Source: an uncultured Candidatus Saccharibacteria bacterium (GTDB lineage: Bacteria; Patescibacteriota; Saccharimonadia; Saccharimonadales; UBA4665). From it: a DNA stretch of 28,827 nucleotides. The position numbers were made by a program, and so were the translations under genes. Location of the stretch: NCBI GenBank assembly GCA_964453515.1, contig CAYVOS010000001.1, forward strand, positions 1 to 28,827, given 5' to 3'. The notes beneath the pieces are model-generated. The model made no database searches. It was not told where the DNA came from and saw only the letters and a list, made by a program, of their open reading frames with translations. Shown here piece by piece: positions 13,254-28,827 of the stretch; position 1 is the stretch's first letter, and the number at the start of each line of letters is the position of its first letter.

Positions 13254-13361
13254 TTAGCTATGCATGATATACACGATGGCCAGTAAGATAATCGCGCAAA
13301 TGACCACTACGAGTGCTTCTAGCGCTGTGAAGCCCGCTTCCTGTTTTGATAGTTGCCGCAT
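13254..13361 (-). CDS. 35-aa type IV prepilin-like micro-protein (class III signal peptide only)
   Basis: MRQLSKQEAG/FTALEALVVVICAIILLAIVYIMHS*: polar leader, G-1, F+1, E+5 and a 20-residue hydrophobic helix. AAGGGTGG lies 9 nt upstream. Below the ORF-track cutoff. Confidence 0.65.
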   Translation of the reverse strand: MRQLSKQEAGFTALEALVVVICAIILLAIVYIMHS

Positions 13362-13479
13362 ATGCAGATTCCACCCTTGCTGTTTTGAATTAATAATAAC
13401 ACCAGTAATATATTCTGTGACTCCGAAAGTTGTTATACTTAAATCAAGTTAAGCATTACAGGGATATGGCCATAGCAGT

Positions 13480-14337
13480 ATGAAACTTAAGAGCCCGGTT
13501 GTTACGAGCCTGCTTCGTTTTCGCCTACCGCAAACAAAAGTTTGGTTACTGTCACTGTCATTCGCAGGACTGCTTTTTCCCGCTACCGCTTCAGCCGTCA
13601 GCGTGATCTCCCAAGGCTTTACGACCACCGACGCTGTGCGTATCGGTTCAATCGTCAGTCTCTTGGATAACTCGTCCGACAAAGTACAAGCGACCAATAC
13701 GAGTAACGTAACAAATATGCTCGGCGTCGTGATTGACAACAGTGACACCCTCATTACACTCGATAGCAGCAAATCCAACCAGGTGCAGGTTGCAACCAGC
13801 GGCATCGTCGAAGCGTTGGTATCAAATATTAATGGCACCATTGCCCAGAACGATGAGATTACCGGTTCGCCAATAGCCGGCGTTGGTATGAAGGCCACCG
13901 ACAATGCGCGAGTCGTTGGCGTCGCGCAGGAGGCACTTAACAGTACCGACGGCACAACACAAACTTACAAAGACAGCCATGGACAGACACACAATGTCCT
14001 GATAGGTGAAATCCCCATTCAGGTTAATGTCGCCTACTACTTCAAGCAACCCTCAAAGACCATTATCCCGTCAGCCGTGCAGTATATCGCGAATGCGCTC
14101 GCAGGAAAAACAGTCAGTCCGGTGCCGATTTTAGTTAGTATCGCAATTTTTATCATTACGCTTATCGTTGTTGTTAGTATAATCTACTCAATGATACGTA
14201 GCAGTATTATTTCGGTGGGGCGAAACCCCATGGCGCAAAGCGCTATCTACCGAGGCATCGTACAGATGTCGGTATTGGTACTTGGCATTTTGTCCGTTGG
14301 ATTGGTTTCTATATATTTAGTACTGACGAAGTTATAG
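13480..14337 (+). CDS. Membrane protein: signal peptide, beta-rich domain and a C-terminal ATP-synthase c-subunit-like hairpin with no ion-binding carboxylate
   Basis: Ala-x-Ala signal (TASA), beta-rich middle (GVV..VQVATSG.V...NG.I...D.ITGSP.AGVGMKA..VVGVA), then TM-GRNPMAQSAI-TM (RNP at 14221-14229). No Asp or Glu in the hairpin. Occupies the atpE position of the operon. Confidence 0.7.
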   Translation: MKLKSPVVTSLLRFRLPQTKVWLLSLSFAGLLFPATASAVSVISQGFTTTDAVRIGSIVSLLDNSSDKVQATNTSNVTNMLGVVIDNSDTLITLDSSKSNQVQVATSGIVEALVSNINGTIAQNDEITGSPIAGVGMKATDNARVVGVAQEALNSTDGTTQTYKDSHGQTHNVLIGEIPIQVNVAYYFKQPSKTIIPSAVQYIANALAGKTVSPVPILVSIAIFIITLIVVVSIIYSMIRSSIISVGRNPMAQSAIYRGIVQMSVLVLGILSVGLVSIYLVLTKL

Positions 14338-26420: not shown

Positions 26421-26548
26421 TAACTCCATTATTCCCCCTGTAAAATGCTTGTGTTAACGGGCAAAAACCGTTATGCTTGTAACAGGTAAAGTGCTGTTTT
26501 GGGCGACTACCTGTATCGTTCAATTAAAACGAGACACTACAGAAAACA

Positions 26549-28827
26549 ATGGGTCTGGGGATACGGAATTTCTGCCGCAAATTTTGCGCATTCAGCTTAC
26601 TATTATGCGTCGGTTCTTTAAGTGCCGTATTCGCCACTTCGGCTCCCGTGCATGCTGCAGTTGGTATTAACCAGGAGATGAACTTCCAGGGCCGTCTTTT
26701 AAATAACCAGGGGGCAATAGTTCCTGATGGCTACTACAACGTTGAATTCAAGATTTACCAGGACGGTGATGGCCAGACCGCCGGCGACACCACCGGCACC
26801 CCTGCTGGTACGCTACTCTGGACTGAAGACTATGTAGACAATAACGCCAATGCTGGCATACAAGTCGTGAACGGCTACATGTCAGTTCAGCTAGGCTCAA
26901 TCTGTGCGTTCGGCGGTGGCTCTTGCCAAGGCCATACAAACGCTGGTGTTAACTGGGACAGCAACACCTTATGGCTCTCGATGAACATCGCCGGCGACAA
27001 TAATGCCTGTACCGCATTTGGCGGCACCAACTGCACCGCTGACGGTGAAATGATCCCAATGAAGCGCTTGTCGGCTAACGCCTACGCAATGAATGCGTTG
27101 GCCGCAATTAACTCCCAGCAGCTAGGTGGCATTAACAGTGGCAATTACGTACAGTTCGCCGACGGTACATTACAGTCGGATAGCACGGCCTTTAACAGCA
27201 TCTACATCAATAAGACGGGCACTGGCAATATTATCGATCTGCAAACAAGCGGTGTCGACTCATTCATGGTCAACAATAGTGGAAATGTAGTTTTTGGCGC
27301 TAATGCTACGCATACACTATCGGTTGCTATAGCTGCTGCGAGCACTGCTGGCCAAGCACTTACTCTTTCCGCAGGTAGCGCTGGCACAGGCACAACTGCA
27401 CTCACAGGCGGCACATTAACGCTTGATGCCGGTACGGGCGGTGGCACAAATGGTAACGGTGGCAACTTAGTACTCGATGCCGGTGCACCAAACGGTACCG
27501 GTACGGCAGGCACTATAGCCGTCGGCGGTAACTATGCGAGTTCTGTACAACTTGGAAACGTATCAACTACAACCCAAGTAAAGCAGGTGGCAGGTGGCGC
27601 AACCACAACATTATCTAACACTGGCGGCCAAGCTATTGTTGGGTCTAACTCGACCAGTGCAACAACAGCGCTAAAAGTTTCTAACAGTAGCAATGTATCA
27701 CTCTTCCAAATTACGGATGATGGCACAGTTGATCTAGGAGTAAACTCACTCAATAACCCTGCACTTATACTCAACACTTCCGGACAGATCACCACTGCGA
27801 CTACTGTAAATACAACTTCACCAGTTGCATTGCTTGTGCAAAGCTCATCTACTGGTGAGGTACTTGATGTTGATACAACCAATAACCAAATACTAATCGG
27901 CCAAGCTGGTCATGTTAATGGTCTCGTTGCACTCGAATCAACTACTGGTGGTTATGTTGGCTTAGCAGCACCAAGTATCGCTTCCGGAAGTTCATACTCG
28001 CTCAACCTACCATCAAGTGCACCAACCGCCACGAACCAATGTTTACAAACAAGCAGCGCCTTTACTCAATTAACCTTTGGCCCATGCGGTATCACCGGAA
28101 GTTTCATTAATAACGCATATGGTACGACGCAAGCAGGCAACTTCAATATCCAAGGTGTTTCCAGCACCGTAGCAACAGCCGCCATTGAAGCCAACAACGG
28201 TGGTACTGGTGATATTCTAGACTTATTGAATGGTGCTGGCACAGCAGTAGCTACCTTTGACAGTAATGGTAACTTCGTTGACAGTGCTACCGGAACATCC
28301 AGTTTTGCTGGTACGTTAAGCGTAGCCACTGAAATCAAAACACCAACACTGGACACCGCCAGTGCTGTACCGTTGAATATTGGAGCTAGTTCTTCGCAAA
28401 TTAACTTAAATCAGAACGTAGTCATCGCTAATGGTGCCAACCGCTCAATTAGTGTGGCTGCCGCTACCGCAGGTAATGGCAATGACTTAAGCGTGAGTGC
28501 AGGAGCTGGTGCTAGCGTCGGCAATAATAATGGTGGAAACGTGAATATTGATGCCGGAGCTAAGGCGGGTACTGGTGTAGACGGAATAATTAACATCGGC
28601 ACAAACCATGCCAGTGCCATCAACATTGGGACTCCAGGCGTCACAACGACCAACAACGGCAATGAGGCTGTAAGTGGACAGATTGCAGTTGGAAAATCCG
28701 GTGCCTCAAATGGAACAGTAGTGTTTAACACCAGCGCTGGCCCAAACGCAATTACACTAAACACCGCATCGTCAGCCGAGGCCTACACCTTAACCTTGCC
28801 TATATCAGCTCCTGCGGCTGGACTCTG
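26549..28827 (+). CDS. Large secreted Gly/Thr/Ser/Asn-rich fibre-like surface protein (3'-partial, at least 759 aa)
   Basis: Absent from the ORF track, probably because there is no stop in the window. MGLGIRNFCRKFCAFSLLLCVGSLSAVFATSAPVHA signal, then MNFQGRLL..G..VPDG.Y.VEFKIY..LWTE..V.NGY.SV.LGS. The frame also reads through where I spot-checked (27302, 28442, window end), and has internal repeats. Confidence 0.85.
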   Translation, partial: MGLGIRNFCRKFCAFSLLLCVGSLSAVFATSAPVHAAVGINQEMNFQGRLLNNQGAIVPDGYYNVEFKIYQDGDGQTAGDTTGTPAGTLLWTEDYVDNNANAGIQVVNGYMSVQLGSICAFGGGSCQGHTNAGVNWDSNTLWLSMNIAGDNNACTAFGGTNCTADGEMIPMKRLSANAYAMNALAAINSQQLGGINSGNYVQFADGTLQSDSTAFNSIYINKTGTGNIIDLQTSGVDSFMVNNSGNVVFGANATHTLSVAIAAASTAGQALTLSAGSAGTGTTALTGGTLTLDAGTGGGTNGNGGNLVLDAGAPNGTGTAGTIAVGGNYASSVQLGNVSTTTQVKQVAGGATTTLSNTGGQAIVGSNSTSATTALKVSNSSNVSLFQITDDGTVDLGVNSLNNPALILNTSGQITTATTVNTTSPVALLVQSSSTGEVLDVDTTNNQILIGQAGHVNGLVALESTTGGYVGLAAPSIASGSSYSLNLPSSAPTATNQCLQTSSAFTQLTFGPCGITGSFINNAYGTTQAGNFNIQGVSSTVATAAIEANNGGTGDILDLLNGAGTAVATFDSNGNFVDSATGTSSFAGTLSVATEIKTPTLDTASAVPLNIGASSSQINLNQNVVIANGANRSISVAAATAGNGNDLSVSAGAGASVGNNNGGNVNIDAGAKAGTGVDGIINIGTNHASAINIGTPGVTTTNNGNEAVSGQIAVGKSGASNGTVVFNTSAGPNAITLNTASSAEAYTLTLPISAPAAGL

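Follow-up and report, generated by a model that had tools for sequence, protein, structure and literature searches.

A conserved neighbourhood of an F1-like ATPase operon and surface-fibre genes in Saccharimonadia

Patescibacteria (the candidate phyla radiation, CPR), a very large group, are tiny bacteria that mostly live attached to hosts, and how they attach and move is poorly understood. In the Csc/WxL clusters of lactobacilli and enterococci (PF13731, PF06030), secreted paralogues with a common C-terminal domain are encoded beside a DUF916-type, transmembrane (TM)-anchored protein with an immunoglobulin (Ig) fold; we know of no such cluster that is linked to any ATPase. Here we analyse a 28,827-nucleotide (nt) stretch of DNA (the window), which is the entire contig CAYVOS010000001.1 of an uncultured Candidatus Saccharibacteria genome (0.99 Mb, 162 contigs, 84% complete), and in which an atypical F-type ATPase operon, headed by the membrane-hairpin protein X285 (X in relatives), adjoins a block of surface-protein genes. 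Our analysis suggests that the window probably carries the type-A copy of a conserved Saccharimonadia module that links an F1-like ATPase without a bioenergetic role functionally to envelope proteins. This envelope set would comprise the TM-anchored fibre bh345, the Csc-like proteins s270, s438 and s409 together with w346 and p322, the giant fibre f759 and, in type A only, a mini-pilin.

The closest known parallel appears to be that with the mycoplasma F1-like X0 ATPases, which would be alike in outline without being of the same family. The Type 3 enzyme is required for the adjacent MIB-MIP antibody-cleavage surface system (Berlureau 2026, PMC12994834; also Beven 2012, PMC3369863), and its cluster consists of seven genes, including those for a 12-TM protein and a small cytoplasmic protein, without b and delta (PMC12994834). 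The Type 2 enzyme of Mycoplasma mobile, the G1-ATPase gliding motor, is likewise F1-like and is thought to transmit force across the membrane to surface ‘legs’ (PMC8406192; bioRxiv 10.1101/2024.06.11.597861); G1 beta carries a large N-terminal domain forming twin motors and chains (PMC8406192; bioRxiv 10.1101/2024.06.11.597861; PDB 9io5). The methods of a 2026 preprint on rotary ATPase evolution mention unusual CPR beta neighbourhoods; the passages that a term search found there do not describe the present system, and our literature search found no paper describing this Saccharibacteria F1-like/surface module.

An analogy with the mycoplasma F1-like X0 and MIB-MIP clusters had been drawn in a preliminary description of the window, and it is apt. 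As in Type 3, an extra F1-like alpha/beta/gamma/epsilon set is present besides canonical F1Fo, it is without a or c genes and lies beside surface genes, and the bacterium that carries it is genome-reduced and host-dependent. Unlike the Type 3 cluster, and hence outside its definition, the window operon keeps b-like and delta-like genes and has neither the 12-TM nor the small cytoplasmic protein. The surface partners are unrelated, being MIB/MIP in mycoplasma and fibres with a Csc-like set here, and X285 matches the mycoplasma protein MMCAP2_0577 in architecture only. From M. mobile G1 the window differs in that its beta has no large N-terminal domain; no jellyfish or leg homologues were seen. 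Since the window beta matches canonical F1 beta chains with 395 bits and M. mobile G1 beta (9io5) with 295, direct membership in the Type 2 lineage is unsupported, and these bit scores make an origin independent of the mycoplasma F1-like ATPases the more likely one, Type 2 G1 being the sole solved mycoplasma F1-like beta. Compared with canonical F1Fo (atpBEFHAGDC), the operon shares homologues of alpha, beta, gamma, epsilon, delta and b in canonical order and a c-type GRNP loop, but has no a subunit, a c-like hairpin that carries a fused secreted domain and no carboxylate, and an epsilon without its C-terminal helices.

To describe the neighbourhood, we gathered 80 loci around relatives of the window beta (73–83% identity; the type-A loci), all from metagenome-assembled genomes of Saccharimonadales/Saccharibacteria, and searched them with every window protein. 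The operon occupies 13480–19682 on the + strand, in the order X, b-like, delta-like, alpha, gamma, beta, epsilon, and is followed by the surface block, in which bh345 (−) precedes s270, s438, s409, w346, p322 and f759, all on the + strand. The features are listed below.

13480–14337, + strand: X285, made up of a signal peptide, a beta-rich ectodomain of ~150 amino acids (aa) and, at the C-terminus, a TM hairpin resembling a c subunit, whose GRNP loop is invariant and which has no carboxylate.
14352–14957, + strand: b-like stalk protein, with an N-terminal TM helix (residues 1–19) and then a long charged helix; weak ATP-synt_B match (E 0.0034); present at 72/80 type-A loci.
14914–15438, + strand: delta/OSCP-like subunit; Pfam OSCP match of 22.4 bits against a cut-off of 22.3; 73/80 loci.
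15368–17053, + strand: alpha-like subunit (Pfam ATP-synt_ab, 8.4e-66), extended at the C-terminus by a charged tail of ~100 aa; translation probably starts downstream of 15368.
17073–17900, + strand: gamma-like subunit (Pfam ATP-synt, 1.2e-25), 80/80 loci; the likely start is the Met at 17073, in a frame open from 16866.
17897–19432, + strand: beta-like catalytic subunit (Pfam, 1.1e-64).
19413–19682, + strand: epsilon, N-terminal beta-sandwich only (Pfam ATP-synt_DE_N, 1.9e-10).
19685–20722, − strand: bh345, in which a cytoplasmic N-terminal tail and a single TM helix precede a repeat region resembling a beta-helix and a C-terminal globular domain.
20800–21612, + strand: s270, secreted, with a C-terminal domain also present in s438 and s409; translation likely begins at the Met at 20851.
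21754–23070, + strand: s438, secreted, with two Ig-like beta-sandwich domains.
23141–24370, + strand: s409, a paralogue of s438 (42% identity).
24374–25414, + strand: w346, an Ig-fold protein resembling DUF916 (‘WxL-interacting protein’); it has a signal peptide and is anchored by a C-terminal TM segment (302–320).
25452–26420, + strand: p322, an anchored Ig/PKD-like protein.
26549–28825, + strand: f759, a giant secreted fibre of which the N-terminal 759 aa are encoded before the contig ends.
13254–13361, − strand: mini prepilin-like short open reading frame (sORF) of 35 aa, with a G|FTALE class III signal motif and a mature part of ~25 aa, divergent from the operon.

The linkage between motor and surface genes is far beyond chance. 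Among type-A loci whose contig reaches far enough downstream, bh345 was found in 73/73 (always on the − strand), s270 in 65/66, s438 in 57/58, w346 in 54/55, p322 in 50/51 and f759 in 46/48, and gene order and strands were identical in all 52 loci holding every marker, with L038 as the sole clear exception. Upstream, the housekeeping genes that fill 458–12869 of the window (−), encoding among others LepA, MurJ, a VirD4-like ATPase, FtsH, TilS, a homocysteine methyltransferase and an LCP protein, are eight in number, and none recurs in any of the 80 loci, 59 of which extend at least ~3.5 kb upstream of X. This shows that the neighbourhood has been kept where the surrounding synteny has dissolved. 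The preliminary description had named gene-neighbourhood and co-occurrence analysis across Patescibacteria among the checks on its proposal; operon and block turned out to be syntenic in nearly all type-A loci, and the refuting outcome, that they are unlinked and do not co-occur in relatives, clearly fails.

The details of the junctions given in that description also hold. The first surface gene converges on epsilon across 2 nt (stops at 19680–19682 for epsilon, +, and 19685–19687 for bh345, −), the pilin-like sORF on the other flank is real, and the block, put at no less than 9 kb, covers 9.1 kb of the window and continues past the contig end. From 19685 to the window end there is no further sizeable gene besides the seven surface ORFs, and bh345 and s270 are divergent, with a spacer of 77 nt. 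Transcription units were assigned from strand and spacing only; a scan of 12800–28827 gave 26 promoter-like hits against 20.8 in shuffled sequence and 21 terminator-like hits against 16.1, neither above the shuffled expectation. That scan contained a perfect sigma-70 consensus (TTGACA, 16-nt spacer, TATAAT) at 13209–13236 (−), just downstream of the mini-pilin sORF and directed at the LCP gene, the scan as a whole not exceeding chance. Public sequencing runs matching the window by DNA came from mine-drainage and soil metagenomes, and the same search listed no RNA run carrying the window sequence.

The genome has three alpha/beta pairs (six PF00006 matches): a canonical pair on contig C40, the type-A pair of the window and a third pair on C78/C79. 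The C40 operon is a complete canonical atpBEFHAGDC with a and c genes, while the third pair belongs to a second atypical operon (type B), built like that of the window and divided between the two contigs. In the window operon, Pfam matches cover alpha, beta, gamma, epsilon and OSCP, with a weak match for b, so that an F1 head and a delta/b stalk set are encoded. No ORF of subunit a (PF00119-type) lies between 12870 and 19682, no multi-TM protein is encoded within the window operon, and phmmer with the genome’s own canonical a subunit found no match in 14 related operons at the threshold used. By its gene content, the operon retains everything that a torque-generating F1 requires, stator stalk included; both features required for ion coupling, an a subunit and an ion-binding carboxylate in the hairpin of X, have been lost. 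The Saccharimonadia X-type enzymes group together with full support in a beta tree, separate from canonical CPR betas, in a topology that does not settle the monophyly of all X-type enzymes. The type-A alpha and beta subunits end in charged, Lys/Glu/Pro-rich tails (16750–17053 and 19290–19432; ~100 and ~50 aa), which are absent from the type-B subunits (beta 434 aa).

X285 belongs to no Pfam family. Its hydrophobic segments are at residues 25–43, 217–235 and 265–283, and an AF2 model (pLDDT 81) shows a signal helix, a beta ectodomain at 44–183 and a helical hairpin at 214–284 (helices 214–246 and 252–284). The GRNP loop between the helices (G247, R248, N249, P250) is invariant in 39 aligned sequences (alignment A3), whereas the acidic residue of the hairpin is absent in 38 of these 39; position 262 is a nearly invariant Gln, replaced by Glu in the one exception, L104. 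The canonical c subunit on C40 has the loop GRNPE and a Glu in helix 2. Foldseek searches of the PDB with the ectodomain returned phage head-fibre base and capsid decoration proteins (E 7e-5 to 1e-3, TM score by target 0.4–0.67), namely phi29 gp8.5 (6qyy), HFTV1 (8qsy) and BB1 (8pkh), at a sequence identity of 10–18%; X thus shares a fold with these phage proteins, but here the fold is fused to a membrane hairpin within a cellular operon. Matches in the AlphaFold DB were to fibre trimerisation, intramolecular-chaperone (IMC) and tail-fibre domains, and the ectodomain module is also embedded in giant proteins of 1000–11716 aa throughout the phylum. Some of the matched AlphaFold DB entries bear the title ‘HTH merR-type domain-containing protein’. 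In locus L162, the giant protein after X (12479–21283) has a C-terminal stretch, ...VKVNGEGGPIAVGDKVTISSVEGVGKKAT..., that by eye resembles the X ectodomain core, ...GDxITASPIxGVGMKA..., which suggests that fibres and X may have a pairing or trimerisation module in common. A complex prediction of X (36–285) with bh345, both supplied as alignments, scored 0.01 and gives no verdict, speaking neither for nor against binding. The phage-like fold of X also raised a prophage origin of the fibre block, which was set aside, as the window contains no capsid, terminase or tail genes (in an assessment made without a PHROGs scan) and the module is chromosomal across the class.

The seven surface proteins all have an N-terminal hydrophobic segment, a possible signal peptide or anchor, to which w346 adds a strong C-terminal TM segment, and in all of them Thr, Ser, Gly and Asn are abundant and charged residues scarce. 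The statement in the preliminary description that every gene past 19.7 kb encodes a predicted exported or membrane-anchored beta-rich protein is therefore upheld as regards the N-terminal segments, while a beta fold was modelled for s438 and is presumed for the others. The AF2 model of s438 (pLDDT 79) matches generic Ig-type domains of adhesins, pilins and integrin-calf in the PDB, with low TM scores, and a Foldseek search of the PDB with the whole model returned no WxL structure. Other Saccharimonadota surface proteins carry the C-terminal domain of s438 at their own C-termini, as expected of an anchoring or docking domain, and the C-terminal 150 aa of s270 are 29% identical to their counterparts in s438 and s409. 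Pfam searches with the s438 family, s270, bh345 and an f759 orthologue gave nothing above the cut-offs. Weak PKD and Glucodextran_B matches were obtained for p322, in type-A and type-B copies alike, and the type-B copy of bh has a weak Bactofilin match (5e-5, below the cut-off). Orthologous open frames of f759 in three relatives measure 1124, 2788 and 2816 aa.

How far the block can be called ‘WxL-like’, as the preliminary description had it, differs between its parts. WxLIP_PGBD (PF06030) matches 20/35 members of the w346 family (best E 4.9e-10), placing w346 in the DUF916 family, although the window copy itself scores 17.1 bits against a cut-off of 27.3. The WxL domain (PF13731), in contrast, matches none of 36 s438/s409-family members at E 0.01, and s270 is also without a match; for s438, a language-model lead to WxL stayed below threshold (0.86 against the 0.9 mark). 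The block thus resembles Csc/WxL clusters in its secreted paralogues with a common C-terminal domain and in a DUF916-type protein with a C-terminal TM anchor, and differs from them in that the paralogues fail the WxL Pfam model, in that no Pfam match to a small LPXTG-anchored protein or to WxLIP_HBD (DUF3324) was found in the block, and in its position beside an ATPase. On these sequence comparisons, it would not count as a WxL cluster in the strict sense, the DUF916-like anchor being the only part of that label that is supported.

The mini-pilin sORF reads MRQLSKQEAG|FTALEALVVVICAIILLAIV, which, with its hydrophobic helix, conforms to the class III signal peptide of type IV pilins (G|F-T-L-x-E). 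It has no globular C-terminal pilin domain, since the ORF ends ~25 residues past the cleavage site, and the median mature length in relatives is 26. In 48/69 type-A loci, but in 0/37 type-B loci, the 1.5 kb upstream of X contain a counterpart of this sORF on the minus strand, the background rate of the prepilin motif being 0.02 per kb. A 62-aa ORF on the + strand (13264–13452) was rejected as a gene, having no relative in the 80 loci and a conserved sORF on the opposite strand.

Further evidence comes from the paralogous type-B modules, for which we gathered another 80 loci with the type-B beta. These loci have their own X, b, delta, alpha, gamma and epsilon and, downstream, bh, s270, s438, w346 and p322 in the order and orientation of type A; f759 and the mini-pilin are missing. 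Type-A homologues of X, bh, s438 and w346 are ~42–61% identical to the respective window protein, type-B homologues ~23–35%. As all components fall into A and B forms separated by matching distances, the whole module appears to have been duplicated as one unit. Where type-B loci had enough flank on both sides, 29 held X together with the block, 23 held neither, two held X only (L125, L154) and none held the block only, with absences checked by hidden Markov model (HMM) searches of six-frame ORFs. The X-less operon is an intact b-delta-alpha-gamma-beta-epsilon set between a cysteine desulfurase gene and mnmA. Early-branching type-B lineages in the beta tree hold both X and the block, and the empty state arises in several separate places, for example in L130/L137 versus L165 inside a clade with 100% support. 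Parsimony on this tree requires at least eight changes for X and at least nine for the block. Three well-supported independent contrasts in X were matched by the block in a mean of 2.8 of 3 over 200 pairings, and were never opposite.

Two observations on individual type-B copies may be added. A complete type-A module (L053) and an X-less type-B operon (L118) were found on the same chromosome, and the X-less type-B F1-like head may share the type-A X. The type-B module of the window’s own genome looks interrupted, by eye, in that a 299-aa ORF resembling a mobile element separates epsilon from the bh paralogue (C79:2720–3616, C79:3828–4466).

Beyond these two sets, a profile search found X in 132/201 sampled Saccharimonadia genomes and in 90/118 genera. 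Within the window’s order, X and a strong w346 orthologue lie 7–23 kb apart (mostly 10–15 kb) on the same strand in ~30 genomes, judged from coordinates, and a hand tally of genomes gave ~32 with both, 8 with X only, 2 with a strong w346 orthologue only and ~31 with neither. Other families of the class show rearranged layouts. In f20, N-terminally TM-anchored fibres of 800–1800 aa follow the operon, which at times lacks b and delta. Two f20 loci (L177:14050–18777, L183:724–5407) read X-alpha-gamma-beta-epsilon without b or delta, then anchored fibres, then gyrB and gyrA; such stalk-less operons resemble the stalk-less mycoplasma clusters more closely. In f22, a second, orphan X is found far from ATPase genes and directly upstream of giant fibres of ~870–2470 aa (L180:18635–19474, L182:18815–19900), at least two of which match the bh HMM, while the X that heads the f22 operon has no fibre genes nearby. 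In one f22 operon (L175:11290–15929), beta appears to be split into two overlapping frames, and gamma and beta are separated by ~2.4 kb of unassigned sequence, which could be an insertion or an intein.

A giant anchored fibre, in one case with a CBM_4_9 carbohydrate-binding module, directly follows X in L162, where X comes after epsilon, and in L186, whose ATPase side is not in the sequence; in L184 and L188, X directly abuts the surface block. Altogether, X adjoins N-terminally TM-anchored giant fibres, with or without the ATPase, in L162, L177, L178, L180, L182, L183 and L186, these fibres either matching the bh HMM (L180, L182) or having the same N-terminal TM-anchor layout. No other genes accompany X as faithfully as those of N-terminally anchored fibres. 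Of 14 full-length X-like genes from other classes of the phylum, 11 stand first in operons of the type X-(b)-delta-alpha-gamma-beta-epsilon, without a match to the canonical a subunit of the window’s genome at the threshold used; giant proteins follow three of these operons, housekeeping genes the rest. Three of five other-class genomes (G258, G376, G392) have an X-type alpha/beta pair only and no canonical pair. The giant proteins that follow the operon at L196:15071–19900, L198:2–2458 and L204:16120–19899 have, by eye, MerR-type helix-turn-helix-like N-termini, which are odd on a giant fibre.

A tie between the motor and the surface proteins is thus indicated by the near-complete type-A synteny, the duplication of the whole module, the joint presence and absence of X and block, and the fibre genes beside X in other families, together with the phage-fibre-base fold of the X ectodomain, the separate canonical F1Fo operon and the mycoplasma precedent. 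We favour an ATP-consuming device that passes force or a conformational change via X to the surface fibres and the Csc-like complex, and regard this reading as rather more probable than its negation. In such a device, an alpha3beta3 head in the cytoplasm, held by the b/delta stalk, would hydrolyse ATP; gamma and epsilon would act, by way of the conserved GRNP loop, on X hairpins assembled into an oligomer; and a movement or conformational change of X would reach the ectodomain, which would hold or shift the fibres. We infer the protein contacts, the X ring, rotation and a host-cell target of this scheme, as well as the ‘single machine’, the ‘membrane ring’ and the ‘host interaction’ of the preliminary description. 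A more specific version, in which X is a c-ring-like rotor with an external crown of domains of the phage-fibre-base fold and ATP-driven rotation of this crown against the b/delta stator winds, swings or retracts the attached TM-anchored fibres, so that episymbiotic Patescibacteria move on their hosts or pull themselves onto them, seems to us rather unlikely.

Several observations weigh against a functional tie. Operon and surface block are not one transcript, judged by strand and spacing, bh345 being convergent and s270 to f759 forming a unit of their own. In f22, f17 and most other-class loci, the X-ATPase operon is followed by housekeeping genes. Triads of s438, w346 and p322 occur without X, bh or ATPase nearby in L229, L230 (G080) and L231 (G143), and no X was found in G080, a single-contig genome estimated to be 99% complete; on this gene content, the Csc-like set can evidently work alone. 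In the window’s own genome, paralogues of w346 and p322 also lie beside a transposase-like ORF (by eye) at C84:1–4266, with no adjoining s438-like gene. X-less type-B operons stay intact (L118:6489–11679 and ~22 others, for example L090, L099, L108 and L114), which implies that the F1-like head serves some purpose, or has another partner, where its cognate X or block is missing. The independent-contrast test, finally, comprises three well-supported pairs, which are too few to reach significance. The separate transcription units, the lone triads and the many lineages with an X-ATPase but no block would all be expected if the two systems were independent and adjacent through shared ancestry or the transfer of a single island, as would the fairly close kinship of the type-A loci (beta 73–83% identical). 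Such a neighbourhood without function is nevertheless improbable: the upstream flank has turned over completely at the same distance (0/80), the layout is kept in both paralogous modules, X and block were repeatedly lost together with no surface-only locus, and fibre genes adjoin X again in rearranged layouts.

The main rival assigns the ATPase and X to the assembly or export of the fibres, powering their secretion, insertion or trimerisation, with X as an outside chaperone or platform of the intramolecular-chaperone kind. FliI/FliJ, an F1-related ATPase serving type III export, provides a model. The X ectodomain resembles phage-fibre autochaperone and trimerisation domains (the phi29 gp12 C-terminal fragment, Peptidase G2/S74 IMC-type entries, long-tail-fibre trimerisation), the neighbouring fibres are very long (1100–2800 aa) and must fold outside the cell, and the co-loss of X and block fits assembly as well as it fits a motor. 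We still consider this role unlikely, as the neighbours bear ordinary N-terminal signal or anchor segments, which suggests Sec export, as no pore-forming membrane protein is encoded in the operon, and as the peripheral stalk (b, delta) is retained together with gamma and epsilon, as a torque-generating rotary enzyme requires. Least probable of all, in our view, is a working ATP synthase or pump whose unrecognised channel partner, for instance the mini-pilin or bh345, replaces a, the surface genes being bystanders. That the X-type pair is the sole F-type enzyme in the three other-class genomes speaks for such an ion-coupled enzyme; yet the hairpin has no acidic residue in 38/39 X sequences, no a-like multi-helix protein is found in or beside the A, B or other-class operons, and a complete canonical operon is present elsewhere in the genome.

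Our analysis reveals a channel-less F1-type ATPase that is spread across the phylum, with an outward-facing membrane subunit repeatedly encoded together with surface fibres. The co-loss pattern names candidate partners, namely X, the bh-type anchored fibre and the Csc-like set. As three sampled genomes showed the X-type enzyme only, ‘ATP synthase’ genes in CPR genomes call for caution in annotation, since they do not always imply chemiosmotic metabolism. If the proposed tie between motor and surface proteins is true, this would be a second, seemingly independent case, after mycoplasma, of a rotary ATP synthase made into a surface machine in a genome-reduced symbiont and, should the rotor version also be true, a rotary motor powering an external appendage by ATP instead of ion flow.

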